From positions 24,849-88,848 of the forward strand of contig JAGVYH010000001.1 of NCBI GenBank assembly GCA_018303325.1: a DNA stretch of 64,000 nt. Reading direction: 5' to 3'. Position numbers and translations under genes: made by a program. Of this stretch, positions 11,800 through 62,580 are shown piece after piece. Numbering within the stretch: position 1 is the stretch's first letter; the number at the start of each line of letters is the position of its first letter. This stretch comes from Candidatus Woesearchaeota archaeon. Its GTDB lineage: Archaea > Nanobdellota > Nanobdellia > Woesearchaeales > DSVV01. Under the pieces are notes generated by a model. That model saw only the letters and a list, made by a program, of their open reading frames with translations. It had not been told where the DNA came from and made no database searches.

Positions 11800-14700
11800 T
11801 TACCTCACCAAAAACTTGTCAATAACATTATCGCTCCATCCCTGAGCTTTAAGTTTTTCCCTGATTTCCTCTGGTGTGTTTCCTTTGTCAAGATAATATG
11901 CAACATACTTCCTTATTTGCTGCTCATATTCCTTTGGCAGCGCATTGTGGAGCTCTTCGTCAAAGATTTGATTAATGTTTTCTATGTTGTAGCCAATTCT
12001 TTCAAGGTTCTTGGTTATTTCTTCTCTGTCTTTTCCTTGACTAAGCTCTTTTTTAATAAAATCTTTTAGCTCATCTTTTTTCATAGAAGTTTCTTCTCTT
12101 GTTTCTTTTGGCGGCTCAGCTCCTTTAAAGGGTTTACGCAGTTCTTCTGGCTGTTCTATTCCTGCGATTACTTCTTCGTGCGGATGTTGTTTTCTTGTTA
12201 TAAGGAATACAATCAATCCTATTAATAGCAAGAAAGGTATTAATGTCCACCAGTATCCTTTTATTTTGTCAAACAAAGGTGTTTCGACAACAGGCGGTAT
12301 TACTTGTGTTGGTAATGTTATCGGTGGTGTGATTATAGGCGCTTCTTTAATCATTGGCTCTTCGCAAGGTTTGCACTTCTTGCCGCCACAGTCTATTCCG
12401 TATTCATCTGCATCTTTTTTATTATTGAAGCAATAATCAGGGCATTTTAATGCACATTTGCCACCACAGTCAACACCTTCTTCGCCAATATCTTTCATTT
12501 TATTGTTGCAACCCGGCGCATAACTCGGCGTGTTGCCTTTGCAGTCATACTGGAACAATAAAGACGTGCCACACTTGCTTAAGCATTTGTAGATTATCTT
12601 GTCTTGAACGCAAGGCGTGTAAGCTTTTTGTGCGTGGCATTTGGCTGAATCCTGCGGGAGCATGCATTCGTTGCTACCACCGCTACTACTTCCACCACTA
12701 GATTGAGCTTGTCCTTGGTCTGGTGGTGGTGTATCTGTGTCAACTGCTGTTGCTTCTGCACAAATGTTGTTAACACAATATGATTTGGTTGTATCTGTGC
12801 AGTCTGTGTTAGATAAACATTCATACATTGGGTCAACACAAACACCTTCTTTTACACACTTGTTATTAGAATTACATTGATAATCTGCTCCACAACCAGA
12901 AGTTGTTGTACTAGTATCACAAACAACTTCTTTACCATCTGCTTTTTCTATATCTGTTATTAAACATTTTTTAGCGATACTATTTTGTTCACAAACAGAG
13001 TTGTCAATACAATTTACTGATTGTAAACAGACACCTAGTTTACACTGTCCATTTGGACAATAATCAGAAAATGGTGATGTTGCTTCTAGTTGTGGTGTGA
13101 TTTCATTTCCATTCTCGTCAAATAATGTCGCAATTACTTTCCAGTCTTTGCATTCTTTGTTTTCTTGGACGACGAGGTGGTTGTATGCGTTTGTTAAGGC
13201 ATCTTGTTTTGGTGTTATTGTAATAACTCCATCACTTGTTGTTGTTTCCATCACGCTGTCATAATTTGCTTTGATTTGTTCTGGTGTTAAGGCGCGGGAG
13301 TAGAGTTTGAATTCGTCGATGACTGTAGATTTGAGGTAACTATCTACTTTAATTGTATTGATATACATAATTTCACTATGTCCAAGATAAAGCTCTTCAA
13401 ATATTAATGGTGTTGAGATTGTTAGTAAGTTAGTTTCACAATATAATTCATTGTTAACATAGACACTTGCTTTAGTTCCATCATAAATTAGATTAACATA
13501 ATTCCATTCAACATTTAAAGGTTTGTTACCAGTACAACTAATTGTGATATCCCCCACTTTTAGATTTATTTTTAATAAAGGCTGTCCATTGTTATTAATA
13601 ATTTCAAATATATCTTGTGGTTTTTCATCGCTACTAAATGGTGTTCCAAATAAAGGACCTTCACTAGTAGATTTTATATTTGCCCAGAATTCAATAGTAA
13701 ATTCATTTAAGTTTGACAATTTATTTGAAATAATATCAACAAAGTAATTATATTCAGTACCACTTGTAGCTATTACTTTTCCTAAATTTTTACCCTTTCC
13801 TATTATTCCATCTATTATTGTTATTCCTGGTTGTAATACCACACCATGAAGATTTAAAGTATTATGACTGTTTCCAGAAATATCCATCAACTCAGCTTCC
13901 AACGGCAAATTCAATAAAGTAATTGATTCATAATTTGATTCTGTTCCATCATACCAATTATAGTGAACACTTCCAACTGTTGGTGTGAATCCTTCAGGAA
14001 TAGTTGTTTCTGCAACAAAGTCGCCATTATTTTCTCTTATTAGTGTTAATGTTGGTGGTGTTACTTCTGCTTCACACTCGCTGATTTCAAAGTCGAAAGT
14101 GTCGTCTGTGACTACTTTAGTTCCTTTATTATCTATCTTTGTTAATGTAACTTTCATACAAGTATCGTCGGCAAGAGTAAATTCTTTAGGTATGTTTAGT
14201 TCAAGACCATCAATGCAAGTTCCTTGAACACAAAATTGGTCTGAAGTACATTCAGATTTACAGGTTTGTTCTTCCTCTTCAACACAAACACCTTTTTGAC
14301 AAACACTCCCATCTGAACATAAAGTATCTAATTCATTCGTCGTAAGCATTTCATCAAATGCTCCACTTTCTCTAAACCAATACCCATCTACTTCCCACTT
14401 TCCACATTCTTTGTTCATGCTTGGAACTAAAGTGTTGTATGAGGTGTAATGTGCTGTATCTTTTACATTACCTTGAGCGTCTATTACACTGTCATAATTA
14501 GCTTGAACTTGTTCAGGTGATAAGGCGATGTCGTAGAGCTTGAATTCGTCGATGAGGCCTAAATAATTTGCTGTTTTTCCAAGATAAAAAGGTGCAGCTA
14601 ATTGTCCAAACGTAAATTCTAAAGAAGTATAATCTATTTCACCTTTATTCTCATCATTTAGATATACAGTTAATTTATTATTTGTTTTGTCATAAACAAC

Positions 14701-16524
14701 AACAAGGTGATTCCATATCTTTTGTGTATATTCAATACTAACTTTATTATCCCATGGGATTTGTTTGTCTTGATTATCTTTACCAATCCAACCTATAATG
14801 AGATTAGGTTTATCATTAACATTCTCTTGTCCAATAATGAATGAGTTTTTATCTGCTATCTCGTTTATCATATTAACTTTTTCAAATAAATATCCTAAAT
14901 TTTCACTATTAAACCACATCTCTATCGTAAAATCATTGTCTAAAACTAAGTTTTCATCGCCAATTTCAACGTAATCATTAACGCCGTCAAAACTAAGAGC
15001 ATGTCCGACAATACCTTTTGATTGAGTAATAATATCATTAACTGTACTGTCAATATTAAGAGTACCACTTATTTCATATAATTGGGTGGTTGTAGTGGAT
15101 TTTTTTTCCATCGGCAGATTAACCACAGTGATTGATTTACTACTACCAACTACTCTTTTTTTCCAGTTGTAATGCATACTGCCCATGAAATCTGATGGTT
15201 GAGATGGTTCTGGAAATAATGAGACAATGAGGTCTTCATTATCTGTTTTATCTAGAATAATAGATGAAAGTGTATATTCTCCACACTCTTTTATAGAAAA
15301 ATCAATATTATCATTAGTATCAATATCTAAAATAGTAACTTCAAAACAAGTATTATCATCTGTATATAGTTTATATGTTTCACCAATGCCTAAAGAATCT
15401 ATTGGCTCACCAACACACTTTGCTTCTTCGCAAGAAGAACTCCCAGAAGGACAACTTGTCATTTTTTCAACTAAACATTGCTGGCCAAATTGGCAATCAG
15501 AGTTTGCTAAACAATTCAAACTTATTGTTTTGCCAATTACAGAAACAAAATCTCCTGTTTGTTTACCAAACAGATTTTCTTTAATTGTCCATGTGGGGAG
15601 AACAGGTCCACCAACAAAGATATTATTTGCATGTAATGTTTCAAAGCTTTTTCCATTTTTCATATCTTGATAATTTGCTTCTATTTGGCTTAAAGACAAA
15701 GCACGAGGATAAATTCTAACTTCATCAACAATGAGGTTACCATTTAGAGAATTTAAACGTTTAGGTAATATATTTAAGTTATATTGTGTTAAAGAATTAA
15801 TAGGGTGATATCCAATATATTTTGTTTGTAACTTATCATCTGTTTTCAAGAACAGAGATTGTTTGTCATATCCAAAAACAACATAAACAAAATCATCTTT
15901 GGGAAGAGGATTGCAATCAAAGGAGTTGATTGTATACAACGTATCATACTCATCATAAAAACCAGCATTAATTTTATAACCTAATTGAACTCCAAAACCA
16001 GTAGAGATAAAACACATTTCTAAACTCAAAAAGTATTGATCTCGATTAGATAATAAGTTTATTTTTGAATTAGATTCAAGATTTTTGATTTTAAACCTTG
16101 TTTCTATTGTAAATTCATTTTTACCTGACAATAAATTCTTAAAATGGTCATCAGTAAAAACTAAACTTTGTTCTTTGTCGCTAAGATCAAACTCAATCGC
16201 TGTTCCTACAACCGTCTCATCAAGAAAAGGAATATATAAAATGGGTGGATTATCTTGTGGGAATAATTGTCCTTCCATTCCTGAAACAATATCCTTTGTC
16301 TTACCATTTGGATTGAGTACCATAGGTAAATTAAGCAGTGCCAACGAGCCATAGATAATTGGTGACTCCCAATTAAGAGCAACCATAATATCATTGCTTT
16401 CAATAGGATTTACCTTAACACCATCTTTAGTCACAGTAAAATAATTGTTATCCGCAACTACAAAAACAAAACTTAAAACAAGGATTAATATAATTAAAAT
16501 TATAATTATCCCTTTATTTTTCAA
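11800..16524 (-). CDS. Giant (1574 aa) surface protein with three LamG/ConA-like lectin domains, Cys-rich EGF-like modules, a C-terminal TM helix and a conserved cytoplasmic tail
   Basis: N-terminal signal/TM. LamG_3-type motifs (DEVRIYPRALSLSQIEANYQD, IDEFKLYDIALSPEQVQANYDSV, IDEFKLYSRALTPEQIKANYDSV). TM YWWTLIPFLLLIGLIVFLI. The tail aligns with those of the 703-aa and 2260-aa proteins. Confidence 0.75.
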   Translation of the reverse strand: MKNKGIIIILIILILVLSFVFVVADNNYFTVTKDGVKVNPIESNDIMVALNWESPIIYGSLALLNLPMVLNPNGKTKDIVSGMEGQLFPQDNPPILYIPFLDETVVGTAIEFDLSDKEQSLVFTDDHFKNLLSGKNEFTIETRFKIKNLESNSKINLLSNRDQYFLSLEMCFISTGFGVQLGYKINAGFYDEYDTLYTINSFDCNPLPKDDFVYVVFGYDKQSLFLKTDDKLQTKYIGYHPINSLTQYNLNILPKRLNSLNGNLIVDEVRIYPRALSLSQIEANYQDMKNGKSFETLHANNIFVGGPVLPTWTIKENLFGKQTGDFVSVIGKTISLNCLANSDCQFGQQCLVEKMTSCPSGSSSCEEAKCVGEPIDSLGIGETYKLYTDDNTCFEVTILDIDTNDNIDFSIKECGEYTLSSIILDKTDNEDLIVSLFPEPSQPSDFMGSMHYNWKKRVVGSSKSITVVNLPMEKKSTTTTQLYEISGTLNIDSTVNDIITQSKGIVGHALSFDGVNDYVEIGDENLVLDNDFTIEMWFNSENLGYLFEKVNMINEIADKNSFIIGQENVNDKPNLIIGWIGKDNQDKQIPWDNKVSIEYTQKIWNHLVVVYDKTNNKLTVYLNDENKGEIDYTSLEFTFGQLAAPFYLGKTANYLGLIDEFKLYDIALSPEQVQANYDSVIDAQGNVKDTAHYTSYNTLVPSMNKECGKWEVDGYWFRESGAFDEMLTTNELDTLCSDGSVCQKGVCVEEEEQTCKSECTSDQFCVQGTCIDGLELNIPKEFTLADDTCMKVTLTKIDNKGTKVVTDDTFDFEISECEAEVTPPTLTLIRENNGDFVAETTIPEGFTPTVGSVHYNWYDGTESNYESITLLNLPLEAELMDISGNSHNTLNLHGVVLQPGITIIDGIIGKGKNLGKVIATSGTEYNYFVDIISNKLSNLNEFTIEFWANIKSTSEGPLFGTPFSSDEKPQDIFEIINNNGQPLLKINLKVGDITISCTGNKPLNVEWNYVNLIYDGTKASVYVNNELYCETNLLTISTPLIFEELYLGHSEIMYINTIKVDSYLKSTVIDEFKLYSRALTPEQIKANYDSVMETTTSDGVITITPKQDALTNAYNHLVVQENKECKDWKVIATLFDENGNEITPQLEATSPFSDYCPNGQCKLGVCLQSVNCIDNSVCEQNSIAKKCLITDIEKADGKEVVCDTSTTTSGCGADYQCNSNNKCVKEGVCVDPMYECLSNTDCTDTTKSYCVNNICAEATAVDTDTPPPDQGQAQSSGGSSSGGSNECMLPQDSAKCHAQKAYTPCVQDKIIYKCLSKCGTSLLFQYDCKGNTPSYAPGCNNKMKDIGEEGVDCGGKCALKCPDYCFNNKKDADEYGIDCGGKKCKPCEEPMIKEAPIITPPITLPTQVIPPVVETPLFDKIKGYWWTLIPFLLLIGLIVFLITRKQHPHEEVIAGIEQPEELRKPFKGAEPPKETREETSMKKDELKDFIKKELSQGKDREEITKNLERIGYNIENINQIFDEELHNALPKEYEQQIRKYVAYYLDKGNTPEEIREKLKAQGWSDNVIDKFLVR

Positions 16525-22121: not shown

Positions 22122-22922
22122 ATGATGACAAAAAAAACAAGAAAAGGATTAGGAGAGAAATCTGCGATAGTATTATCTACACTCTCTGAAAAAAACAAGA
22201 ATATCTTTAATGTAGATGATGTTGCAGCGATTCTTCATGAGAAAAGATCGTCAATAATTAAACTTCTTCATGATTTAACTAAGAAAAGATGGCTTTTTCG
22301 CATAAGTAAAGGAATATATCTTATTCTCCCATTAGAAGCTGGGGCAATGCCAAAGTTTACTGAACATGAATTTATACTTGCATCCAGACTAATTTCACCA
22401 TATTACATCTCTTATTGGTCAGCTCTGAATTATTATGGCTTAACTGAACAGGTCTCCAAAACTATTTTCATCGCTACACTTAAAAGAAAATTAGAAAAGG
22501 AAATAATGGGATTAAAATTCAGGTTTATCACCCTCAACAAAAATAAATTTTTTGGATTCAAAGCGATGCAGTTAAACAATCATATTATCAAAATCGCAGA
22601 AGTAGAAAAAGCTATTATTGATTGTTTGGATTTGCCTCGAAATTGCGGGGGGATAGTTGAAGTAATTAAAGCTATTGATGAAGCTAAAAAAGAAATAGAT
22701 TTTAATAAATTAATAGCTTACGCAAAAAAAATGCAGAATGCAGCAATTCTTAATCGTTTGGGATATATATTAGAATTATTAGGGATTAAAGCTAATATAA
22801 AGCCAAGCAAACATTATGTTATGCTTGATACTATCAGTAAAAAGAAAGGAATATATAACAAAAAATGGAAAATTGTTGAGAATGTTTCAAGGGAAGAACT
22901 ATTATCTTGGAGGGAGCATTAA
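22122..22922 (+). CDS. abiEi: AbiEi-family antitoxin/transcriptional regulator (type IV TA)
   Basis: The architecture and size fit, it overlaps the downstream AbiEii gene, and it is similar to the other two AbiEi-like ORFs at 32838 and 61752. Confidence 0.6.
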   Translation: MMTKKTRKGLGEKSAIVLSTLSEKNKNIFNVDDVAAILHEKRSSIIKLLHDLTKKRWLFRISKGIYLILPLEAGAMPKFTEHEFILASRLISPYYISYWSALNYYGLTEQVSKTIFIATLKRKLEKEIMGLKFRFITLNKNKFFGFKAMQLNNHIIKIAEVEKAIIDCLDLPRNCGGIVEVIKAIDEAKKEIDFNKLIAYAKKMQNAAILNRLGYILELLGIKANIKPSKHYVMLDTISKKKGIYNKKWKIVENVSREELLSWREH

Positions 22923-23713
22923 TGATACCTCTTGCTGAACTAAAACGGATTGCTGCTAAGAATAGTGTAGCTTTAAGTGTAGTTGAGAAAGATTATGCGA
23001 TTACATGGATATTATATGCTTTGGCAGAAACAATGTTCAAAGAGTGTTTTATTTTTAAAGGGGGTACTGCATTAAGAAAAGTATATTTCCCTGCATGGCG
23101 CTACTCTGAAGATTTAGATTTTACAGCAACTAAACTTTTGAATGAAATAGAAGTTAAAGAATTAATTAGCTCAGTTAATTACTATCTTTATGAAAAAATT
23201 AAGATGAGTATAACATATAAATCTTTGTATCTTAATCCAGAATATGCTCAGCTTAAAATTCAGTTTTTGGGACCATTAAATCGCGAAAATACTATAAAGC
23301 TAGATATCAGCTTTAGTGAATTCCTAGTTTTGCCACCAGAAAATAAGCTTATCCACTCAGAATATTCAGATAAAGAAAAACACTTCTTGTATGTTTATTC
23401 ATTGGAAGAAAGCTTAGCAGAAAAAATTAGAAGTATTTTACAGCGAGGAAAAACAAGAGATTATTATGATGTATGGAGAATATTAAAGTGGCATTATAAG
23501 TTGATAAATAAAACAAAAACCAAAGAAATTTTAAATCAAAAGTGCAAATTCAAAAATATTATATGTAATGAAAAACTTCTTTTTGGCCAAGAAAAAGTGG
23601 ATAATGCAAAAAAACATTGGGAAAAAGGATTAGGATACCAAATTAATGATTTACCAGATTTTGATATTGTTATAACTGAATGTAAATACTTACTAATGCA
23701 ATTTTTGAAGTGA
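22907..23713 (+). CDS. abiEii: AbiEii/AbiGii-family nucleotidyltransferase toxin
   Basis: Motif FKGGTALRKVYFPAWRYSEDLDF. Confidence 0.75.
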   Translation: MEGALMIPLAELKRIAAKNSVALSVVEKDYAITWILYALAETMFKECFIFKGGTALRKVYFPAWRYSEDLDFTATKLLNEIEVKELISSVNYYLYEKIKMSITYKSLYLNPEYAQLKIQFLGPLNRENTIKLDISFSEFLVLPPENKLIHSEYSDKEKHFLYVYSLEESLAEKIRSILQRGKTRDYYDVWRILKWHYKLINKTKTKEILNQKCKFKNIICNEKLLFGQEKVDNAKKHWEKGLGYQINDLPDFDIVITECKYLLMQFLK

Positions 23714-23716
23714 CCT

Positions 23717-23962
23717 CTTCCCCACCACCACATCACCATACTTCACCAACATCAATACACCTAATAGTATTATCAGTATCAACGCAGCATACAGGAATAT
23801 TCCCCAGTAATGTATCTGGGTTTGCGGATTGGTAACGCTTACTGGTGTTTTTGGCGCTTTTGTTCGAGTTTGTTGATTAACGCTTAATGGAGTTTGTGGC
23901 GCTGTTATCTTGGTTTGTTTAGAAAGATTTAATTTCTTTACTTGTGTTTGTTTTATTTTAGC
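23717..23962 (-). pseudogene. Duplicated 5' fragment (promoter-proximal region and N-terminal codons, but no start codon) of the 185-aa NDAK-protein gene; copy 2 of the direct repeat
   Basis: About 95% identical to 21629-21922. It diverges just before the ATG. Confidence 0.7.
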
Positions 23963-24118
23963 ATTTTATTTATTTATTTATATATTTTTATGTTATTTTT
24001 CATTCTTCATAGTTTTGGCATTAAAAAATGATACTAAATAGAAATATTTAAATAATAGTATGCATTCATACTGCATAATTTACATAAAAAGTATGCAGTG
24101 GTGATTTTGGGGATTATA

Positions 24119-24158
24119 TATTCACTTACTGAATATTTAATTATTCACTTAGTGAATA
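24119..24158. promoter_or_regulatory. Pair of 17-bp palindromes (tattcacttactgaata and tattcacttagtgaata) downstream of the ATPase gene. A matching pair sits at 25639-25669 just upstream of its start codon.
   Basis: The palindromes are read directly from the sequence. Four sites in all bracket the gene in inverted orientation. Confidence 0.7.
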
Positions 24159-24161
24159 TAT

Positions 24162-24190
24162 AGCAAAGCTGACAATTTAAGAGCATGCCC
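24162..24190. repeat. Partial (3' half) copy of the imperfect-palindrome module, family P
   Basis: agcaaagctgacaatttaagagcatgcc matches the 3' arm of 34367-34500. Confidence 0.55.
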
Positions 24191-24205
24191 AATACATAAC
24201 TTTTT

Positions 24206-25630
24206 TTATTGCCTTCTCAGCTCTTTTGCCATATCCTTTAGGTCAAATAAAAGAACATTTTTCTGCCCAACTTTTTTCTTAAATGATTTTGCAATGATGC
24301 AAAAATGCTCTTCCCGTTTATTTTTATGCCAGTTTACATAAGCAGATTTCTCTTTCAATTGTTTCAATATTTCTTCTGCGTCTACATTCTCTTTCCATTT
24401 GCATTCTACAAACAGTATTTTGCCCTGCTTTGAAACACCCAAAAAATCAATTTCTATTTCTTTTCTCTCATCCCATTCACGCTTATATCCCCACCAATTG
24501 CTGAGATATTCAATAGTGAATGGCAGTTTTTTATTTGTGTTAAGATGAATAAGAAACTCCCTGCATATCTCTTCAAATCTTCGCCCAAAAAAAGCATTAA
24601 ATTGGTGCGTTATATTTTCAATTAATTGCTCAGTATTCTGCAATGAATAATAAGAAAACTGGTCATAGACAAAAACAAACCAAAATTCTATTAATGGGTG
24701 ATTCAGAAAATACCTTGTGTTTTTTTTGTTATCTATTGGTTTTACTGATTTTATTAAGCTAAATCTCTCTTCAAGCTCGCGCAAATGCCTTGTTATTGAG
24801 CTTTCTTTCATATGAACATTGCTGGCAATTTCATTTAATTTTGCTTTTCCTACAGCAATAGAATGGATTATAGAATAATATAAAGAGCTGCGTTTACCAA
24901 ATTCCTGTTTAAGAATATCACTAACTTCTGTTCCAAGGGGAGCGTTTTCTTGTATAAACAAATATTTGATGACACTGGCATAGTCTTTATCAAACAATTC
25001 AAACTGTTCCATAGCAGCATAATACTTAGGAAAACCGCCAAATATGCCGTAAATCCGCAGCATTTCAGCAAAATTTTTATATTTTAAAATCTGAAGTGTT
25101 TCAATGCTGTATTGGAGGGTAAACGGCTGCAGGTTTATTTTTGCTGATATTCTTCCGTAAAGAGGCTGTTTCTTATCCTCAAATATCTTTCTAAAGAGCC
25201 CAATAAGCGAGCCGAGCATGATCAAATTCAAAGGAGTTTCTTTGTATTCATCGCAATTCTTTTGAAGTATTGAGAAGACTGTTTTGTCCGCATTCTGAAA
25301 GTTTTGAAATTCATCAAAAACAATAACATATTTTTTGCATCTTGTGAATATTACCTCAAAAAAAGTATACCATGAGGTGATTGCTTCAAGAGGAGCAATA
25401 ATCTTTTGTTTCCTCAATTCTTCGCTGAATTCTCTAAGAAGTTCTAACGATGTTTTTGAGTCATAGACAAAGAAATAAAGTGCTTTCTTGTCTTTGATAA
25501 ACTCTTTTATCAATGTTGTTTTTCCTACTCTTCGCAATCCAGAGACTGCTACTGTAAAAAGCCGCTTTTGTGAAAAGCTGTAATATTCATTTAATATCTT
25601 CAATTCCTGTTTTCTATTTATGAATTTCAT
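24206..25630 (-). CDS. AAA+ ATPase of the archaeal ATPase (Arch_ATPase plus DUF234) family
   Basis: Walker A VSGLRRVGKTTL, Walker B IVFDEFQN, and a C-terminal DUF234-like region. Confidence 0.7.
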   Translation of the reverse strand: MKFINRKQELKILNEYYSFSQKRLFTVAVSGLRRVGKTTLIKEFIKDKKALYFFVYDSKTSLELLREFSEELRKQKIIAPLEAITSWYTFFEVIFTRCKKYVIVFDEFQNFQNADKTVFSILQKNCDEYKETPLNLIMLGSLIGLFRKIFEDKKQPLYGRISAKINLQPFTLQYSIETLQILKYKNFAEMLRIYGIFGGFPKYYAAMEQFELFDKDYASVIKYLFIQENAPLGTEVSDILKQEFGKRSSLYYSIIHSIAVGKAKLNEIASNVHMKESSITRHLRELEERFSLIKSVKPIDNKKNTRYFLNHPLIEFWFVFVYDQFSYYSLQNTEQLIENITHQFNAFFGRRFEEICREFLIHLNTNKKLPFTIEYLSNWWGYKREWDERKEIEIDFLGVSKQGKILFVECKWKENVDAEEILKQLKEKSAYVNWHKNKREEHFCIIAKSFKKKVGQKNVLLFDLKDMAKELRRQ

Positions 25631-25638
25631 AGATATAT

Positions 25639-25669
25639 ATTCACCTACTGAATATTCAGTTAGTGAATA
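25639..25669. promoter_or_regulatory. Two overlapping 17-bp palindromes (tattcacctactgaata and tattcagttagtgaata), 9 bp upstream of the ATPase start codon
   Basis: Read directly from the sequence. Confidence 0.7.
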
Positions 25670-25752
25670 TTTATAAAGTTTTCTGTTTTATATGATTTTA
25701 ACGTTAAGATGCCACTCTTCCTTTCCCAAACACATCATTAATTATCTCCTAT

Positions 25753-28700
25753 TTATCCTTTAAACACGCCATCAATAATCTTCTTATTCCATCCCTTTTC
25801 AAGCAATGCTTCTTTTATCGCTGTCTTGGACATGCCTCTTGATAAATAATAATTAATGTACTTTTTTAGCTGCTCATCATAAGTCTTTGGCAGCAGCTCA
25901 TGAAGAGAATTCTCAAAAAGATAATTCACTTTCTCATGCGGATATCCTTTGGCTTTAAGCGCTTCATTTATTTCATGCTTTGATTTGCCTTCATCCAGCA
26001 ATTTCTTGATTTCATCTTTGATTACATTGTCAAATTCAGTAAATATTTCTTTTTTCAGTGGCATTGGCTTGTTAGATAGTTTAGACGGCTTTCCAAACTC
26101 TGCCTCTAATTCTTTTGAAAGCTTTAAGCCCTCAATTGGCGGCAAACCTTTTAATCCTTTGAGTCCATTTAATCCTTTGCTCATTGGAGGAATTGGCTTA
26201 TGCTGGGCTTGATATTGTGAATAACCGACGTAAAACAAAACACCAATTAAAGGAATTAATAATAATAATAATAACAGCCAGTAATAATTGAATCCTTTTG
26301 GCTGCTCAAGAATAGGTGTGCATGATTTGCAAGGTCCACCACAATCAACATCTGTTTCACCCTGATTAATTATATTGTCATAACACGTTGCTTCCTGCTT
26401 ACCTTGGCATGGCGCGCAGGTTTTCCCGCCGCAATCCACGTTAGTTTCATCCTGATTTTTGAATCCGTCGTAACAGGCAGCTTGTTTGCACCAACCATTT
26501 TTACAGAATCCAGACTTGCAGTTTTCATTTACAGAACATTTCTTGTCGTCGAGACATTTAGCGCAGTTATTAGCACCAGTGCCACCAGCGCCGCCTGCAG
26601 TACTGCTGCCTCCGCAATCAACATCTGTTTCGCCCTGATTTTGTTTCTTGTCAGTGCAGGTTGCAGGGCATTGAGCAGAGCATGGCCCTCCACAGTCAAC
26701 ACCTTCTTCAAACAAATCCTTAATTTTATTGTTGCATCCTTGCGCATAACTCGGCGCATTGCCCTCGCAGGGCTCAACAAACAGTCTCATGCCGCAGTCA
26801 TTTGTAGAATTGCAGGTAAATATTTTTGTCGGATAGCTTAAATTACCCTGCAAAACACACGGCGTGTATTTATATTTGAGTTTGCATTTGTCGTCAACCA
26901 AAGGCGAGCAAGTTTTCTCATAACTTGAGCCGCCACTGCCTGTCGAAGAGGATTGTGCTGCTGTACTTTCAAATACTTTTGGAATCTCAAATTCCTTGCC
27001 TGTGTCTAAATCTAATTTTTTGAATGTTGGTTCTTTTATAGTGAATGGCGCTGACACAGCAGGTTTTGCGCCTGATAATCCTGCTGCCTTAAACGCAGTA
27101 ATTGTGTATGGATTTAAGTCTTTTTTTGTGGTTGATTGAACTTTGTCTGTAATATTCGCCAAAAGATAGAGTAATGTTAATCCGTCTTTGTCTGTGTAAG
27201 AAACATCCTTGTCGTCAACAACATTGTCTTCATTAACGTCAACCATACCTCCAAATTGATTAAGCTCGTCAGCATTGCTGGTTATCTCAATGCTTGCGCT
27301 CTCGACAGGGCTCATTGTGTCAGTGCTTTTGACGACGTTAGCTGTTAATGTCCAGTATCTTTTGATGTTGGCGTTGGCAAGCTGTTTGTCTGTATCACTT
27401 AAACTTTCGTCTGTATAAAAATAAACGTCGTCGAAGAATGTGTCGTAGAATTTGAATATTGGAACATTTGTTGACTGTAATTTAATTATAATGTCTTTGT
27501 TATTTATTGATTTCAAGAAATTTAAATTATCATCAGTTATTGCTAAGTCAATTAAGTGTTTACTATTACTTAAATTAGAGAGAGAAATTGTTGCGCTGTT
27601 AAGTTCATTATCAGCAAATGAATTATATTGGTTATTGGTTATGTTTGAATTCAATATGTAGGGAGAAGTTTTCCCTTTCACTTTTAATCCAATCAGATTA
27701 TCATAAATAATATTATTCGACAATGTAATACTTTTTATATTGAAAATGTCAACAGCAACAGTATTATCTCTTAATCCATTTCTGTCAATTACAAACATAT
27801 TTGAATCTCCTGCGGCAATTCCTGTGTTAAATTTTGAGATATTGCAGTTTGAGATTACTGCATTTTTGCCAACTGCTGAAATACCTATACTTCCTTTTGA
27901 GATTGTTTTGTCATATTCAGTTTCTGGTCCAATAATATTTACATTATTTTGGCAGATTAATGCAACCTTGTCTTTTGTGATTTTTATTGCGCCGTCATTA
28001 TTTGCATCGTTAATAGTGTAAGTTCCAGCGCAGATAAGTGTTGGTTCTGTTATTTCCATGTCGTCTGTGACTTCATTATTTACCCCCTTTTTAAAACCTT
28101 TACATACAAGACATTTTCCAAATGCGCAAGATTCTCCAGCGCCACAATCAGCGTCGTTAGTGCATGGATTATAATCACAAACACTTACAAGTTTATCATC
28201 AATTATTTTATCAGAGAGCAAGCATTTCTTTGGTGCATCGCAGTCAGTATCTGTTGTGCATACTTCTAAACCGCATAAAAATGAATTATATTCTGCTTCT
28301 AATGCATCTGTTGATATCAAAAACCCTTCATTTGTCGTCAGATAACTTTTCACTTTCCAATTGCCGCAGTCGCCGTGGATTGAGGGCAGGATTATATTTT
28401 TCTTTAAGGCTTGACCACTTGCTCCAATTACACCTTTAAGTTCGCCCCCCAATTCGAATAAGTGGGCATAGTTTGCTTGGATTTGTTCGGGAGACAGCAC
28501 TTTGTTGTAGATTTTGAACTCGTCAATGAGACCTTTGAAACCATTATCTTGTTTCATATTTTCAGTTACATATTCTTTTGGAAACGTTCCTAAGTACAAT
28601 CCATTATTATTAAATATTAAATCTTCATTGCCTGTAAAATCATCATTATCTACATTTGTTATTTTAACATTATCAACATAAAATTCTAATTTACTTGTTG

Positions 28701-31700
28701 TTTTATCGAATATACCAACAAAGTGATGCCATGAATATAATGGATTCAATGTTGATTCAATTGTTTTGACAGGAATAGATGTTTTTTTGCCATTGATATC
28801 TACATTTTTAAAAAGCATAAAAACAAAATTATTCTTTATTATACCATCTTCTTCTTTTTTGTTTGCTCCTATTAAAAATCCTTCATTCTTATTTGCTCTT
28901 ACAATTAACATATTATCTTGCGTAATAGCAATATTAAACAAAAACTCAATACTTATTTCATCAACATTGTCTAAATTTTGTGTGGAAGGTATTTTGATAA
29001 ACTCATCACCACTAAACTTCATCGCCTTTCCAACACCATCATCTACTAATTCTGGAGCATTTTGTCCTGTTTCATCGCCTGCATAAGCGATTAAATTGTT
29101 GCCACTGATATCTTTTAACTTGTACATTTCATTTCCTGTTGTATCCCACTTATTCATAGGAAGATTTAACACCGTCAAAGATGTATAGTCAACAAACCAA
29201 TTGTATGCTACACCAGTTACAAAGGATTCATAATCTTTTGTTGTTGCAACAAGATTATTATTCTCGTTAACACTTAAAGAGACTGTTGCAGATGTTTTTG
29301 GAATAATTGTTGAGAAGTCGATAAGTGTTAAATGGGGATATTTGTCGAGTAAGTCATATTTAAGGTCATTATCATTAACTTTGAATTGGTAAGCCTTATC
29401 GCAGAATTCATCGTTGCCTTTATCTGCATCTTCATAAACATCTTTATAATTTTGAAATATATCCGAACAGGCAGTTTTAACTACATCAGAATAATCCTCC
29501 CAATAATTTCCGTATCCGTCTTTATACAACATTACTTGGCTATCAGGAGTATCAGCATTATTTTCAAGCAAATCAAATTGGACTGGTGGGTGATGGACAG
29601 TATTAGTATTCTTAAAAATATTGTTGAAAATATAACTCACGTCTGTGCTGCTTGGATTAATGAATAATAGATTCCAATCTTTATTAAATTCGAAAGTGTT
29701 TAATTTAATTTCTGCACTTATTCCTGTTTGCTCATCTTCCTGATTTAATTGCAGCCCAATATTATTCTCCTTAAATGTATTACCTTTGATTCCAACATTT
29801 TTAGAGCCAACTGCAAGCAAACCATTATCATAATTCGTTAATGTGCATCCTTCGACATTAACATTGTCTTTTTGGTTTATGTAGATACCTGCGCCTTGTT
29901 TATTTCCATTTATTTCATTACCTTTAAATTGTGTACCTTTGCATTTAAGGTTTATGGGTGTAATCGCATCTACATCAAATTGTATTATTCCTTTTTTTCC
30001 TTCTGTTTCAAAATCACCATCGTATATTTCATACAAACCAGAGCAGAAGGTTGTGTCTTTGTTGATGAGGATGTTTGTGTATTCGTTTTGCCCATTATCT
30101 GGATTGACTTTTATAGGAAGAAGAGGTATTAACTCTGTGTAAATTGAAGATGATGGTTCAAATATTTTATAGTTAATATTATAATCAACAGGAGGCGAGA
30201 TGCAGTCGTCGTTGAATTCAACTGCAATATTTTGCTGTGAAATTAAATCTGTTATTATGTTTTTATCTAATTTTATAACAATACCCTGATCATCCTTTCC
30301 ATAAGTTATAGAATATGTATATGATTTTTGAAGTTCTTTTACATTATTTACTTTTTTAGTGAAACCATAAAGATAAATATTCTGGTTCAATGGCACGTTT
30401 GCTATACCATATAAGGCTCGGACAACATCAATTTTATTGTTTGCAGTTGTATCATCAACATTAATCTGCGCCATTTCGAGAGGTTCTGTTTTTTCTGTAT
30501 TTGCTGCATCAATATATTTTCTTTTTATGTCGAAGGTGAGGGGGTAATACATGTAGGCAGAAGAAGGTTCATCGTTAATGTATATTAAACTATCTGCTAC
30601 ATTGTAAAGGTAATTATTCGTTGAACTACCAAATAAGATGAAATTATCTATTTGTGGAAAAAGGTTTTCATAAAATTTGTTGTTTAAACTATTACTAATT
30701 ATTATACCTACTTTCTTCAATAATAAATTAGGTGAAACTGGTTTTCCTTCATTCTGAATAAAATCGTTATTTGAAATTATGTTATTATCAGAATTTTCAA
30801 TTTCCAAAACCAATTTATTATTTTTAAATACATTTTTATCTATAACAAGATTATTCACATTATTCTTAACTGCAACTGCTTTGTTAAAACCATTTAAGTT
30901 ATTATCAACGAAATAGGATTCAGTTACAGTATGAAAGGAAACTCCTGTTGTTGTATCTGCTTGATCTACTATAGCAGAAGTAATTAAATTATTGCTTACT
31001 ATGATATTTGAGGAACTGCTCACAACAATACTGCCTTGTTGACTTTGCGCATTCTCTAATCTGTTTCCATAAACAGTTCCTTCATCCAAATTGAGCACAA
31101 TGATGTAAGTAGAATATGCAGGCATATTATTCGCAGATTTAAAATAATTCTTTGTAATTCTTATTTTAGGAACAGCATTTTCGTCAATAATTGGACCTGA
31201 TAAAGAAACTAATGAATTCGTAAATAAATTATTTGAAATTATTACTTCACCATCAAAGCTAGGAATAAAGATACCCATCAACTGTTCATTATTATTCTCA
31301 AAAGTGTTCCCTATAATTTTTGCAGTAGGGAATTCTAAACCTTGCTCATCGCCTGCATTTTCTTTGAGGTTATTAAGTTTTATAGCGGCAACATTGTTTT
31401 TGAAGGTATTATGAAAGATTTCTATATCACTAGTATCTGCAGTAAATGCACCATTAATTGCAGTATTAAACCCTTCAAATGTGCAGCCAGAGATTATAAA
31501 ATTACCGTGAGAACTTTCTTTTAATTCAACTGCAACATCATTGTAATTATTGGCTTTAATTATAGTACCTTTTTCACAAAAAAATTTGCCTTGATCAGCT
31601 AGTTTTATTGGTCCTTGTAGGTCATAAGTACCTGCACATATTGGTGTAATACTATCATCATTAGAACCTGTAAAATAATATCCGTTTGTTAAATCGTCTT

Positions 31701-32535
31701 TTGCATCATAATAAGTTTCTCCATTTGTTACTTTAATTTTATCAAGTTTAACACAATTTCCAAACACAACATTCCCAGTTAACATCTTCAACAACTTCTT
31801 AAATGCGTTACCTACCGGATTTCCTTTTTCATCTTTAAGCGTATTCAACGAATTAATATACGCTTTCAATTCACTTGAAAAACCCATCTCCTTTGGCTCT
31901 ATCGCCAAATCTAATTGCAATTTAGGTGAATCAATTGTATTCAAAAACACTGCATCATATCTTTTGGAATATTTATGCCATTCTGTAAATATAGTATCTT
32001 TAATGCTTGTATCTCCATTTAAATATTTGAGATGGTTAGTCATTAATGTATTCACATCTAACTTGTTATCTTTCAAATATTTCAAGAAATGTTCAAAAGT
32101 TCCAGGCACATTACTTAGCCCATTACCATCAAAAGAAACATCATTTTTTATTGCATTAGCATATACAAATTCACCAAAATCATCTTCGGTTAATATTCCA
32201 GACGATTTAAGAGTGTAAAACTCATTAACGTATTCTGGTTTTATGTCAATAATCCCTTCTTCTTGTTCTTCTAACACTGGATAGAGTGCATAATATTCTT
32301 TAATATTATCGAATGATAGTTGCGGAACCTCTTGTAATGGCTTCTCTATTTCTAATAATGAAGCTTCTTTATAATAGATAGGATTATATTTTATCACTTC
32401 CCCCACCAAATCCTTCACATCCTTAAAACTATCATATTTGCCATAAAGAATTGTAATATTGAGAGAAACAGCTGTAAGTAAGACTAAGAAAGCTAGAGTA
32501 AATGCTATTTTATGCTTGGGATGTATTCTCCCCAT
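25753..32535 (-). CDS. Giant (2260 aa) surface protein with right-handed parallel beta-helix (pectin-lyase-like) repeats, a LamG domain, Cys-rich EGF-like modules, a TM helix and a conserved cytoplasmic tail
   Basis: N-terminal signal. Beta-helix repeat signatures (…ISNN…, NISKFNTGIAAGDSNMF). The LamG motif IDEFKIYNKVLSPEQIQANYAHL. TM YYWLLLLLLLIPLIGVLFYVGY. The tail is homologous to the tails of the other two giant proteins. Confidence 0.75.
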   Translation of the reverse strand: MGRIHPKHKIAFTLAFLVLLTAVSLNITILYGKYDSFKDVKDLVGEVIKYNPIYYKEASLLEIEKPLQEVPQLSFDNIKEYYALYPVLEEQEEGIIDIKPEYVNEFYTLKSSGILTEDDFGEFVYANAIKNDVSFDGNGLSNVPGTFEHFLKYLKDNKLDVNTLMTNHLKYLNGDTSIKDTIFTEWHKYSKRYDAVFLNTIDSPKLQLDLAIEPKEMGFSSELKAYINSLNTLKDEKGNPVGNAFKKLLKMLTGNVVFGNCVKLDKIKVTNGETYYDAKDDLTNGYYFTGSNDDSITPICAGTYDLQGPIKLADQGKFFCEKGTIIKANNYNDVAVELKESSHGNFIISGCTFEGFNTAINGAFTADTSDIEIFHNTFKNNVAAIKLNNLKENAGDEQGLEFPTAKIIGNTFENNNEQLMGIFIPSFDGEVIISNNLFTNSLVSLSGPIIDENAVPKIRITKNYFKSANNMPAYSTYIIVLNLDEGTVYGNRLENAQSQQGSIVVSSSSNIIVSNNLITSAIVDQADTTTGVSFHTVTESYFVDNNLNGFNKAVAVKNNVNNLVIDKNVFKNNKLVLEIENSDNNIISNNDFIQNEGKPVSPNLLLKKVGIIISNSLNNKFYENLFPQIDNFILFGSSTNNYLYNVADSLIYINDEPSSAYMYYPLTFDIKRKYIDAANTEKTEPLEMAQINVDDTTANNKIDVVRALYGIANVPLNQNIYLYGFTKKVNNVKELQKSYTYSITYGKDDQGIVIKLDKNIITDLISQQNIAVEFNDDCISPPVDYNINYKIFEPSSSIYTELIPLLPIKVNPDNGQNEYTNILINKDTTFCSGLYEIYDGDFETEGKKGIIQFDVDAITPINLKCKGTQFKGNEINGNKQGAGIYINQKDNVNVEGCTLTNYDNGLLAVGSKNVGIKGNTFKENNIGLQLNQEDEQTGISAEIKLNTFEFNKDWNLLFINPSSTDVSYIFNNIFKNTNTVHHPPVQFDLLENNADTPDSQVMLYKDGYGNYWEDYSDVVKTACSDIFQNYKDVYEDADKGNDEFCDKAYQFKVNDNDLKYDLLDKYPHLTLIDFSTIIPKTSATVSLSVNENNNLVATTKDYESFVTGVAYNWFVDYTSLTVLNLPMNKWDTTGNEMYKLKDISGNNLIAYAGDETGQNAPELVDDGVGKAMKFSGDEFIKIPSTQNLDNVDEISIEFLFNIAITQDNMLIVRANKNEGFLIGANKKEEDGIIKNNFVFMLFKNVDINGKKTSIPVKTIESTLNPLYSWHHFVGIFDKTTSKLEFYVDNVKITNVDNDDFTGNEDLIFNNNGLYLGTFPKEYVTENMKQDNGFKGLIDEFKIYNKVLSPEQIQANYAHLFELGGELKGVIGASGQALKKNIILPSIHGDCGNWKVKSYLTTNEGFLISTDALEAEYNSFLCGLEVCTTDTDCDAPKKCLLSDKIIDDKLVSVCDYNPCTNDADCGAGESCAFGKCLVCKGFKKGVNNEVTDDMEITEPTLICAGTYTINDANNDGAIKITKDKVALICQNNVNIIGPETEYDKTISKGSIGISAVGKNAVISNCNISKFNTGIAAGDSNMFVIDRNGLRDNTVAVDIFNIKSITLSNNIIYDNLIGLKVKGKTSPYILNSNITNNQYNSFADNELNSATISLSNLSNSKHLIDLAITDDNLNFLKSINNKDIIIKLQSTNVPIFKFYDTFFDDVYFYTDESLSDTDKQLANANIKRYWTLTANVVKSTDTMSPVESASIEITSNADELNQFGGMVDVNEDNVVDDKDVSYTDKDGLTLLYLLANITDKVQSTTKKDLNPYTITAFKAAGLSGAKPAVSAPFTIKEPTFKKLDLDTGKEFEIPKVFESTAAQSSSTGSGGSSYEKTCSPLVDDKCKLKYKYTPCVLQGNLSYPTKIFTCNSTNDCGMRLFVEPCEGNAPSYAQGCNNKIKDLFEEGVDCGGPCSAQCPATCTDKKQNQGETDVDCGGSSTAGGAGGTGANNCAKCLDDKKCSVNENCKSGFCKNGWCKQAACYDGFKNQDETNVDCGGKTCAPCQGKQEATCYDNIINQGETDVDCGGPCKSCTPILEQPKGFNYYWLLLLLLLIPLIGVLFYVGYSQYQAQHKPIPPMSKGLNGLKGLKGLPPIEGLKLSKELEAEFGKPSKLSNKPMPLKKEIFTEFDNVIKDEIKKLLDEGKSKHEINEALKAKGYPHEKVNYLFENSLHELLPKTYDEQLKKYINYYLSRGMSKTAIKEALLEKGWNKKIIDGVFKG

Positions 32536-32837: not shown

Positions 32838-33443
32838 GTGATAGTAATGGGCAAGATAATTAAGATTTATGAGGCATTACTTAATAGAAAAGAAAAGGTG
32901 TGCCACAGAACAGAAGTAGTTGAAATAATAAAGGAATATAATAAAAACCTAGGCCATATTGACTGTGAAAATACTTTAAAATATCTTTCAAGGCATAATT
33001 ATATAAAAAGAATTTTTCTAAATTTTTATTATGTAAATTCTTTGGATGAAAGAGAAAGGAAGTTTTGCAGCTATGAAGATAAAGAACTTCTGTTTACAGT
33101 ACTTAACGGGCTTGGCATAAAATGGTATGTTGGCCTAAATTCATCTTTATATCTTCTTGGGAAAATATGGCAGACACCAAGTGTTTTATCAATAATTAAT
33201 GATAAAATAAGTGGAAGGAAAAAAATATTAGGTTCGAATGTAAGATTTATGAAAATCAAAAGCAGCCTTATTTTTGGGCTTAAAAAAAATAAAACGAAAC
33301 ATAATATAATTTACTGCTATTCAGATTTAACAAAAACTTATCTTGATTTTGTTTATTTTAAAATATCAAAAAAACAGATAAATACAAAGGAAATAGGAAA
33401 ATATCTTAAGAGGTATCCTACTTGGTTCAAAAAATTAATATAA
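32838..33443 (+). CDS. abiEi: AbiEi-like antitoxin (short form)
   Basis: It sits upstream of an AbiEii gene and overlaps it. Its size and HTH-like N-terminus fit. Confidence 0.5.
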   Translation: MIVMGKIIKIYEALLNRKEKVCHRTEVVEIIKEYNKNLGHIDCENTLKYLSRHNYIKRIFLNFYYVNSLDERERKFCSYEDKELLFTVLNGLGIKWYVGLNSSLYLLGKIWQTPSVLSIINDKISGRKKILGSNVRFMKIKSSLIFGLKKNKTKHNIIYCYSDLTKTYLDFVYFKISKKQINTKEIGKYLKRYPTWFKKLI

Positions 33444-34342
33444 ATAAATATGTTGCAGATGTCAAAAAAAATCTTTGTATAGAAGCCCCGGATGAAATAG
33501 TTGAAAAAGATCTGTTGTTGACTCTGATTCTTGCTGAGTTTGAAAAAAGAAAGTTGGAAAAAGAACTGATATTTAAAGGAGGCACTCTTTTGTCAAGAAA
33601 CTATCTGAACTATCATAGATTTTCAGAAGACTTGGATTTTGTTCATAAGGACTCTAATAAATTGCGTGAATTAAAAAGAAATACGCGTGAAAAAAGAATC
33701 AAACAGTTTATAGATTATTTCGTTCCTGAATTAAAAGAAGTTGCAAATATATTAAATTTAGAATTTAGTACAGACAGAAGCAACACAAGATTTTGCACCA
33801 TTCTGCATGGAAGGGTTATTTATATTTTTAGGATTTATTATTCTGAAAATAATTTTATAAAAATTGAAATAAATTTTGTTGAAAAAATAATACACCCCCC
33901 TAAAAGAGTTTCAATAAAAGCGATAACGGACTTTTTTGATTCAAGAGAACTTTTATTTACTCTTGGCCTGAAAATTGAAAATTTTGTTGTTATGAGTTAT
34001 ACTTTAGAAGAAATAGTTCTCGAAAAATATCGTGCAATACTCACAAGAAGCGAGCTTAAGGAACGCGACCTTTTCGATCTTTTTTTAATAAAAAACATAT
34101 TTAATCCTAATATAAACCAGATAGTAGAAAAGATTAAGTGTTCCTCTTTGATAAGGAGAAATCTTAATATTATGATTAAGGAGAAACTCTTACTTCTTGA
34201 AAAAAATGAATTTTTCAGGAGTGATGAGAAAATAGAATATTTGACTATTATTCAGTATAATAAAATAGATTTTGAAAACTTAAAAGAAAAGATTAAACCA
34301 ATATTAATAGAAATTTGCAAGAAATTCTTGGAAATGTATTAA
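33422..34342 (+). CDS. abiEii: AbiEii-family nucleotidyltransferase toxin
   Basis: Motif IFKGGTLLSRNYLNYHRFSEDLDFV. Confidence 0.75.
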   Translation: MVQKININKYVADVKKNLCIEAPDEIVEKDLLLTLILAEFEKRKLEKELIFKGGTLLSRNYLNYHRFSEDLDFVHKDSNKLRELKRNTREKRIKQFIDYFVPELKEVANILNLEFSTDRSNTRFCTILHGRVIYIFRIYYSENNFIKIEINFVEKIIHPPKRVSIKAITDFFDSRELLFTLGLKIENFVVMSYTLEEIVLEKYRAILTRSELKERDLFDLFLIKNIFNPNINQIVEKIKCSSLIRRNLNIMIKEKLLLLEKNEFFRSDEKIEYLTIIQYNKIDFENLKEKIKPILIEICKKFLEMY

Positions 34343-34564: not shown

Positions 34565-35041
34565 CTAGGGTTTTCTTCTGCGCAGCCTAACCTTACTCCA
34601 TCCACTTTTAACTTGTTCTCCAATCTTAAAAGACCTTGCTATCGCTTTATTTTGTATATTCTTGGTCGCATCATAAGCAGTAAGAGTCATGCTTTTTGTT
34701 CTATCTTTAGCTTTGCTGGCAAATAGGTTGGTCTGATCTCGTGCGTGAACTGCAACTTTTCTCGTTCCGTCTCTTAGCGATTCATGATAAAAACGATAAC
34801 TAAGATAACGATTGATTTTATCTGCATATTCTTTTCCAACCCACCACAAACCCCATATTAAGATTAGCCAAGTTAAAAAATAAGATACAAGTAAAGCCCA
34901 CCATATCATCTGATTATTTAAGTATAATAGCAATAATATTTTAATTATCCCACCAGCAGTAAAACTAACTATAATTAACACAATTCCCACATAAAACTTC
35001 CACGAAAAGTTTCTTATCAATGATTCTGGTTTATTCATCAC
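34565..35041 (-). CDS. Membrane protein (two TM helices) with a basic C-terminal domain
   Basis: Hydrophobic segments YVGIVLIIVSFTAGGIIKILLLLYL and WALLVSYFLTWLILIWGLWWV. Confidence 0.4.
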   Translation of the reverse strand: MMNKPESLIRNFSWKFYVGIVLIIVSFTAGGIIKILLLLYLNNQMIWWALLVSYFLTWLILIWGLWWVGKEYADKINRYLSYRFYHESLRDGTRKVAVHARDQTNLFASKAKDRTKSMTLTAYDATKNIQNKAIARSFKIGEQVKSGWSKVRLRRRKP

Positions 35042-62465: not shown

Positions 62466-62560
62466 TATATACTAAAAGTCATTAATTTTCGAACAAATTA
62501 ATGACTTTTGTATATACAAAAGACCAAAATAAAGTACGATTATTTTGGTCTTTTAGTATA
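62466..62560. repeat. 'tatactaaaagt' double-hairpin module inserted between abiEi and abiEii
   Basis: tatatactaaaagtcattaattttcgaacaaattaatgacttttgtatatacaaaagaccaaaataaagtacgattattttggtcttttagtata. The stems covary with the copies at 53674 and 5071. Confidence 0.8.
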
Positions 62561-62580
62561 ATCAAAAATGAGGTGTTTGT

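Follow-up and report, generated by a model that had tools for sequence, protein, structure and literature searches.

Paired palindromes around an archaeal ATPase_2/DUF234 gene as probable operators of its own product

The window analysed here, a 64,000-nt stretch of Candidatus Woesearchaeota archaeon contig JAGVYH010000001.1 (assembly GCA_018303325.1, positions 24,849 to 88,848), contains a minus-strand gene for a 474-aa ATPase with an NTPase domain, a winged helix and a DUF234 domain (24206-25630; a PADLOC PDC-S27 match), which is flanked on both sides by pairs of a 17-bp palindrome. On comparative sequence grounds we consider it probable that these palindromes are operators of the encoded ATPase-nuclease, the upstream pair acting as a self-operator and the downstream pair being a second conserved site, each presumably bound by the protein itself. 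This reading draws directly on the position of the sites, their conservation, their restriction to one gene family, the different repeats carried by other subfamilies and the domain architecture of the protein.

Searching with TATTCACNNNGTGAATA at up to two mismatches returned exactly four matches in 64 kb, at 24119-24135, 24142-24158, 25638-25654 and 25653-25669, as against 0.46 expected from dinucleotide shuffling (0 of 100 shuffles reached four), and no further copy of the motif was found within the window. The palindromes that the initial annotation had placed on both sides of an Arch_ATPase gene were thus confirmed at four sites and nowhere else in the 64 kb. The motif it gave, TATTCAC-N3-GTGAATA, does describe a 17-bp palindrome present at four places, but the sole perfect match to TATTCACNNNGTGAATA is the site at 24142. 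Because the other three deviate at position 7 or 11 (C/G), we take the true consensus to be TATTCAS-N3-STGAATA; used as the working consensus, it has no mismatch at any of the four sites, and the next best sites in the 64 kb have three. The two upstream sites overlap by 2 nt and start 15 nt apart, with 7 nt (9 bp in the initial annotation) between the end of the proximal palindrome and the ATG. The downstream sites start 23 nt apart, and the pair begins 47 nt past the stop codon, where 48 bp had been given. Compared as direct repeats, the upstream and downstream modules match over 29 nt at 90% (family D1), and as inverted repeats over 23 nt at 91% (I2) or 36 nt at 72% (I1). Since each site is itself palindromic, the direct and inverted orientations of the two modules are indistinguishable; 'terminal inverted repeat' (TIR) is a description that the sequence cannot confirm and is not diagnostic.

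Within the promoter of the ATPase gene, the TATA-proximal site 1 (25653-25669, minus strand, reading TATTCACTAACTGAATA on the gene strand) and the ATG-proximal site 2 (25638-25654, minus strand, TATTCAGTAGGTGAATA) form a 32-bp composite palindrome with four alternating half-sites (ATTCA/TGAAT) and the junction palindrome ACTGAATATTCAG, filling the gap between the TATA box and the Shine-Dalgarno (SD) sequence or ATG. The position of site 1 is conserved in orthologues. It adjoins a promoter block (25668-25689, minus strand) composed of TTTATAAATA (25668-25677), a putative archaeal TATA box judged from knowledge of the consensus, and 12 more conserved bases (AAAACAGAAAAC); the last 2 nt of this box coincide with the first 2 nt of site 1. 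Inside site 2, AGGTGA (25641-25646) resembles a Shine-Dalgarno sequence 10 nt ahead of the ATG and may act as one: when 38 operators were aligned, site 2 positions 10 and 11 were G in 32/38 and 37/38, respectively, giving GGTGA at SD distance. Across the same 38 operators, of which those from metagenomes were picked by an exact-match pattern and only 14 loci, found through the protein, form an unbiased set, the ATTCA/TGAAT cores are invariant, whereas the N3 centre and positions 7/11 change freely, with no compensation. Such a pattern fits a protein-recognition site rather than a hairpin. A role as an RNA or DNA hairpin was accordingly rejected, positions 7/11 being also mostly non-complementary and no Rfam match being found.

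A protein-based search restricted to one genome per species yielded 71 loci. All ten relatives with at least about 37% amino acid identity (L007-L014, L020 and L071) carry the double palindrome directly 5' of the start codon; the labels on these records read Micrarchaeota, Nanohalarchaeota, Undinarchaeales, Burarchaeum and, in one case, a 'Peregrinibacteria' bin. No neighbouring gene is common to the window and any of the ten, and the flanking DNA is unrelated. The arrangement is the same in four closer relatives (L198-L201, with 89, 75, 73 and 70% identity). When around 40 orthologue promoters (37-89% amino acid identity) are aligned on the last half-site, one order recurs: after unconserved DNA comes a TATA box (TTTATAAATA or TTTAAATATA), into which site 1 extends by its first two bases; site 2 follows at a spacing of 15 or 16 bp, and the ATG stands 0-5 nt (rarely up to 35) further on. 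The hosts of these operator-bearing orthologues span 27-56% GC and several phyla, and no second gene travels along with the motif and the ATPase gene across them. The sites thus belong to the core promoter of the gene, are conserved alongside it whatever the genomic context, and are specific to it. The best reading of these alignments is that the upstream pair is a conserved, gene-specific operator of the ATPase gene, to which the protein would bind. An autoregulated operator set, one of the two possibilities first raised for these palindromes, is well supported for the upstream pair by its position between TATA box and ATG, by its recurrence in some 40 orthologues without common neighbours, and by the subfamily-specific repeats described below.

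A reverse search for the double palindrome in metagenome contigs found at least 120 loci, and 45 of the matches listed had the 15/16-bp spacing. Among these 45, 27, the window itself among them, stand directly 5' of where an ATPase homologue (38-100% identity) starts, three precede truncated ATPase 5' ends (L087, L153 and L191), four represent one orthologous site from which the ATPase open reading frame (ORF) is deleted, the NIF3 locus, two are orphans (L110 and L197), and nine lack the N3 core and are apparently unrelated. In all, 30 of the 36 N3-core matches listed accompany the ATPase gene or its remnant. The other approximately 75 loci among the matches listed have longer spacings and are mostly 39-nt elements, and none of them adjoins an ATPase homologue. 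The motif was absent from the viral contigs searched. As a separate observation, the 39-nt element (TATTCAYGNNRTGAATGATAATCATTCAYNNNRTGAATA, containing ...TGAATGATAATCATTCA...), which the loosened search pattern retrieved as well and which we take to be Fur-box-like, is widespread (L080, L100, L104, L123, L184 and about 50 other loci) and unrelated to the ATPase, and L141 and L124 contain tandemly arrayed TATTCAAG..TTGAATA units.

These matches also bear on whether the palindromes could be sites of a separate host transcription factor, a regulon motif with the ATPase gene as one target among others. Such a factor would account for the double palindromes that, on four GC-rich archaeal contigs, precede NIF3 with no ATPase gene next to them, and for the two orphan copies. 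However, the great majority of N3-core matches accompany the ATPase gene or its remnant, the motif follows this one gene between hosts of very different GC content and phylum, other subfamilies each carry their own repeats, and loss of the ATPase ORF by deletion accounts for the NIF3 sites, given that L176 keeps operator, ATPase and NIF3 at the same locus. We therefore regard a host factor as unlikely.

In L176, a GC-rich archaeal contig, the order is ELP3 (divergent), operator pair, ATPase and NIF3, with the ATPase stop overlapping the NIF3 start (ATGA). Four further contigs (L165 at 4500-4630, L169, L088 and L093) are homologous to L176 on both sides (72-94% nucleotide identity) and lack exactly the ATPase ORF, so that the operator pair comes to lie 10-12 nt before the NIF3 ATG; the archaeal contigs with this ELP3/NIF3 locus have 53-56% GC. 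At three other loci (L087 246-278, L153 321-352 and L191 5055-5087), the double palindrome is followed by only 6-16 ATPase N-terminal codons (MKF(I/V)...) and then a stop, and by sequence these are decayed gene copies whose operator was kept. The two orphans (L110 7429-7461 and L197 1053-1085) have no ATPase remnant: one sits between convergent genes on a 236-kb contig, and the second is found 142 nt upstream of a 235-aa ORF without a Pfam match. Because the empty NIF3 alleles, the three truncated remnants and the two orphans all fit such turnover, this comparison suggests that ATPase ORFs come and go, and that the promoter/operator can stay behind and drive what follows.

The protein itself matches ATPase_2 (PF01637, E=2.8e-15) and DUF234 (PF03008, E=1.8e-23) in Pfam, and the PADLOC hidden Markov model (HMM) for PDC-S27 (PDLC04985) covers aa 2-454, nearly its full length (E=1e-52). 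An AlphaFold (AF2) model built from 32 homologues (pLDDT 91.9, pTM 0.89) shows, in order, an NTPase, a helical region, a winged helix and an alpha/beta domain (DUF234). The AAA+/STAND-like NTPase occupies aa 3-203, the helical region and winged helix aa ~246-310 (window 24701-24895; in the model the winged helix itself is at aa ~249-309), and the DUF234 PD-(D/E)XK-like domain aa 317-420 (window 24371-24682). Walker A residues G31/G36/K37/T38, Walker B residues D106/E107 and the PD-(D/E)XK residues E393/D395/E409/K411 are invariant in the 32 homologues. Foldseek returned the Pyrococcus abyssi Walker-type ATPase 2qen as the nearest solved fold (E=1.6e-13), followed by Cdc6/Orc1 proteins, including DNA complexes, and then by NLR/STAND modules. 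Sequence similarity of the winged helix to the winged helix-turn-helix (wHTH) of ArsR and Csa3 is weak and sub-threshold; as modelled, the winged helix could bind DNA. The statement in the initial annotation that DUF234 proteins carry a wHTH holds insofar as a winged helix is present in the protein, but it is located between the ATPase and DUF234, and DUF234 itself is PD-(D/E)XK nuclease-like.

DUF234 is listed as a PD-(D/E)XK family (PMC3424549), and an ATPase fused to a PD-(D/E)XK domain has been described (PMC12988326, PMC3424549). PDC-S27 is ranked as belonging to the archaeal core set of defence systems and candidates, with 3503 detected in Archaea (PMC12988326). The window protein shares with PDC-S27 (ATPase_2 + DUF234; COG1672) the near full-length HMM match, the Pfam architecture and intact NTPase and PD-(D/E)XK motifs, and the neighbourhood of its gene holds AbiE modules. 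A defence role for PDC-S27 is a family-level prediction by genomic association, which makes the protein a candidate. The identical protein was found on 21 metagenome contigs, including a groundwater metagenome assembly, and no ATPase paralogue was found in the 64-kb window.

The association of the gene with repeats in its promoter extends beyond the TATTCA class. Distant DUF234 ATPases, both archaeal and bacterial, carry other repeats at the same position, examples being AATTCTA/TAGAATT, a doubled TATACAT-N3-ATGTATA, palindromic ATAATCAAACTCG and directly repeated GTATGATACAAA or TAATTGTACAGTTAG. Of 66 DUF234-ATPase genes, 61% have, within 60 nt ahead of the ATG, a repeat or palindrome that is exact over 9 nt or more; the corresponding values were 20% for the remaining genes of these loci and 19% for shuffled sequence (Mann-Whitney P~5e-12, from loci that are phylogenetically non-independent). 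The third helix of the winged helix begins SITR(H/Q) in the TATTCA class; it differs between operator classes and is common within them. Because a host factor would not be expected to travel with one gene across phyla and to change with the subfamily, the simplest reading of these sequences is that each protein of the family recognises the repeats in its own promoter.

In the mechanism we propose, the winged helix would bind the ATTCA/TGAAT half-sites, probably as a dimer of dimers on the 32-bp palindrome, and the bound protein would block TBP, TFB and RNA polymerase, thereby repressing its own gene. Negative autoregulation of this kind would keep a potentially harmful ATPase-nuclease low and buffered, and the nucleotide state of the NTPase, or oligomerisation, may modulate binding or release repression. 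Two known arrangements are comparable. In restriction-modification systems, controller (C) proteins use two adjacent palindromic operators in their own promoter to set the nuclease level. The window gene resembles these in its paired palindromes; in contrast, the regulator, ATPase and nuclease here would be one polypeptide, the DNA-binding module would be a winged helix rather than a small Xre-type helix-turn-helix (HTH), the promoter is of the archaeal TATA/TFB type and there is no methyltransferase. In AbiEi, part of a defence/toxin-antitoxin module, a larger protein uses a fused winged helix to bind paired inverted repeats in the promoter of its own gene; however, AbiEi belongs to a different protein family, and the window palindromes lie past the 3' end of abiEii and not at the abiE promoter.

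The downstream pair consists of a first site (24142-24158, minus strand; TATTCACTAAGTGAATA on the gene strand), which is kept in L198, and a second site (24119-24135, minus strand; TATTCAGTAAGTGAATA on the gene strand). The 6-nt spacer between them (24136-24141) creates the junction AATAATTAAATATT, which is similar to the orthologue TATA boxes. Its distribution is narrow: the pair occurs only in the window lineage and in L198 (89% amino acid identity), and it is absent from all relatives at or below 75% that have downstream sequence, namely L007-L009, L012-L014, L020, L199-L201 and 15 metagenome loci. Comparison of the window with L198, a 1789-bp contig from an unrelated run (SRR22387754), gave random-level similarity far upstream, 20/20 identity in a 20-nt promoter block, 32/32 in the upstream operator, 87% nucleotide identity in the ORF, random level in the 3' untranslated region (30 identical columns, shuffle mean 29.9), 39/40 in the downstream pair with the same 23-bp spacing, and random level again beyond it. 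Homology thus stops exactly at 24119; at the other end it continues for 20 nt past the palindromes, through the TATA box. The ORF is less conserved than either operator pair, and because 39/40 identity stands between random-level flanks, the downstream pair is, by this comparison, evidently under purifying selection in its own right.

In L198, the downstream pair lies 5 nt before a same-strand ATG, the same spacing as at the L198 ATPase start, and it would thereby take the promoter position of the next ORF, with AATAATTAAATATT as a putative TATA box about 24 nt before the ATG and one site on each side. That ORF runs for 23 codons (MKRVRNKYYLFGKANTVTYLKCK) to the contig end, and the peptide has no match in the comparison sequences of this analysis. 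The same protein would thus have another site in the downstream pair, of its own geometry (23-bp spacing, TATA-like spacer), and from these sequences the pair is most likely a second operator/promoter module, orphaned in the window through loss or replacement of the gene that it served. It is possibly the remainder of a tandem ATPase copy whose ORF was deleted.

Past the second module, the DNA at 23620-24118 (minus strand) comprises an AT-rich spacer and two ORFs, one of 27 aa (23993-24076) and one of 114 aa that survives only as a remnant. The latter is intact in the sister assemblies L001 and L002; in the window, a 73-bp deletion after 23964 removes its 5' part and shifts the frame (window 23890-23964, compare L001 4667-5011). 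The product of the 114-aa ORF is Lys-rich at the N-terminus, contains a tandem repeat of 15 aa, has a membrane helix at the C-terminus and belongs to no Pfam family. Its repeated peptide is encoded on the minus strand by a 45-bp tandem repeat at window 23833-23922 (two copies, 76% identical).

The main alternative for the downstream pair is that of an auxiliary operator, which would work together with the operator at the promoter through a DNA loop spanning the 1.5-kb gene, or would form a protein roadblock at the gene's 3' end. The 39/40 identity between two lineages, whatever follows the pair, would agree with this, and AAA+ proteins oligomerise and could bridge two sites. Its absence from all other orthologues means, however, that it is not part of the basic mechanism, and its promoter-like position in L198 speaks for a role towards the next ORF; we consider an auxiliary operator doubtful, and less likely than an orphaned promoter/operator module.

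The same comparison addresses the second possibility raised by the initial annotation, a self-contained mobile or defence cassette in which the palindrome pairs are TIRs acted upon by a transposase-like activity, perhaps that of the PD-(D/E)XK domain. The gene neighbourhood differs in every relative, the outer edge of the downstream pair is exactly where homology with the 89% relative stops, and the family is present on 159 plasmid records and five contigs labelled as phage, all of which would suit mobility, as does the likeness to TIR transposons and miniature inverted-repeat transposable elements (MITEs) in having inverted-repeat-like sequences on both sides of a single gene. Nevertheless, the second end is missing in nearly all relatives, including every one at or below 75% identity with downstream sequence, so that the two repeats do not recur wherever the gene occurs; the upstream homology boundary lies beyond the palindromes and takes in the TATA box; and the pair spacings differ (15 versus 23). 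No target-site duplication flanks the arrangement, no transposase or integrase was found, the ATPase being the only ORF in between, and there is neither multicopy spread within the 64 kb nor any occurrence of the motif in the viral contigs. Nor can inverted orientation be told from direct here. A TIR cassette is thus unsupported and, in our view, very unlikely. What the initial annotation named as counting against its reading, relatives that lack the downstream sites, is largely what the comparison shows, although the gene is non-syntenic and behaves as a patchy accessory gene.

A second copy of the gene's own module right after the gene was seen in three independent lineages: window/L198, L195 and L055. 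In L055 (Thermoplasmata, 30% identical, with a different operator), the promoter module TATATAATYACGATTAGCCTA... at 2950-2997 is repeated at 4369-4405, only 2 nt past the stop codon and some 70 nt short of the next gene, and the similarity stops at the start-codon position. The 2649-bp contig L195 has ends (1-240 and 2410-2649) that are direct repeats of about 240 bp with few differences, each with an operator; between them lie an intact ATPase and a frameshifted second ATPase fragment with a different operator (ATTATTGTA...TACAATAAT). Tandem duplication, a circular form or an effect of assembly could each account for this arrangement. Each of the L195 repeats also includes the 5' end of an ORF that resembles mevalonate kinase by eye.

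Such duplicated modules could be taken to mean that the palindromes are recombination or cleavage sites of the protein's own nuclease domain, with ORFs gained or lost between sites and regulation secondary. Consistent with this, the ORF is precisely present or absent with the operator kept (L176 versus L165, L169, L088 and L093), the second module recurs in three lineages, and the PD-(D/E)XK catalytic residues are invariant. However, most loci have a single module, and L176 has no second site, so that simple site-to-site deletion fails to explain the empty alleles. The duplicated modules span the whole promoter up to the start-codon position, which duplication followed by ORF loss fits at least equally well, and no circular or junction forms were observed. 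We hold this explanation to be improbable. A combined possibility, in which the palindromes are self-operators and the PD-(D/E)XK domain additionally promotes breakage or recombination there, so that ORFs would be inserted, duplicated or precisely lost to leave scars like the operator-NIF3 sites, appears slightly less probable again. Were it true, it would amount to a new, transposase-free turnover of defence-gene cassettes, with the operator-ATPase-operator arrangement of the window as one intermediate.

The resemblance of the fold to Cdc6/Orc1, together with an AT-rich stretch (23930-24060) adjoining the downstream pair, raises the further idea of an origin-like region with an Orc1/Cdc6-like protein, repeats akin to origin recognition boxes (ORB) and an AT-rich unwinding element. 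The two systems do have in common an AAA+ plus winged-helix fold and repeated dyad sites beside the gene itself. The window protein, however, is not an Orc1/Cdc6 orthologue, the likeness being at fold level with 2qen as the best match, and it has an additional C-terminal nuclease-like domain. Furthermore, the sites occupy an operator position between TATA box and ATG in about 40 orthologues, GC skew does not turn at 24 kb, and the AT-rich stretch is not conserved in L198, which together make an origin extremely unlikely.

Several points weigh against the palindromes being operators of the encoded protein. The winged helix of STAND NTPases is often a regulatory part of the NTPase module and not a DNA binder. 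The correspondence of recognition helix and operator class is confounded by common ancestry, and, as most of the metagenome operators came from an exact-pattern search, invariance at the specified positions is partly built in for them. Intact double palindromes without an adjacent ATPase gene (the NIF3 sites, L110 and L197) would be compatible with a separate trans-acting factor. As to the downstream pair, the following ORF in L198 is known only from 23 codons, and in the window nothing recognisable follows the pair, with no start codon at the corresponding place. Nothing on operators or self-regulation of PDC-S27 was found in the literature searched.

If each subfamily has its own palindromic operator, the winged helix probably binds specific DNA and the protein probably limits its own expression. 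Self-operators would provide a concrete and inexpensive experimental handle, in that both the 32-bp site and the domain are defined and variant protein-site pairs occur naturally, as well as a way to predict which paralogues cross-regulate. Orphan palindrome pairs would be explained as scars of lost ATPase genes, which is relevant to archaeal promoter annotation. As gene regulation this is not surprising, autoregulated HTH-bearing defence genes being common, and the novelty is modest: it lies in a family-wide self-operator on an uncharacterised but abundant archaeal defence candidate, and in ORF turnover that leaves operator scars.

The surrounding window (32.8% GC) is chromosomal, with genes for aIF2/eIF5B, HMG-CoA reductase, ELP3 and Lhr helicase. 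No tRNAs were found in the window when tRNA/integration-site context was considered, and a scan for sigma-70 promoters and terminators was uninformative, the host being archaeal. The partial P-module said at first to sit next to the ATPase gene could not be identified. The surroundings of the gene hold three AbiEi/AbiEii pairs together with very large beta-helix proteins. The AbiEi-like/AbiEii pairs (type IV toxin-antitoxin/abortive infection) are paralogous and located at 22122-23713, 32838-34342 and 61752-63351; the 'AbiEi' of the middle pair has no Pfam match and is weakly similar to the third AbiEi. Three very large ORFs, at 25753-32535 (2260 aa), 11800-16524 (1574 aa) and 8386-10497 (703 aa), have a common C-terminal region of about 85-190 aa that is 20-30% identical, and probably encode surface proteins; the 2260-aa ORF has Pfam matches to beta-helix, NosD and LamG, and the 1574-aa ORF has long internal regions in common with it. 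Finally, two paralogous Pol-beta-type nucleotidyltransferase genes (11178-11753 and 35106-35708) each lie just upstream of a small unannotated ORF (10649-11185 and 34565-35041, respectively), and these may be MNT/HEPN-like toxin-antitoxin pairs.

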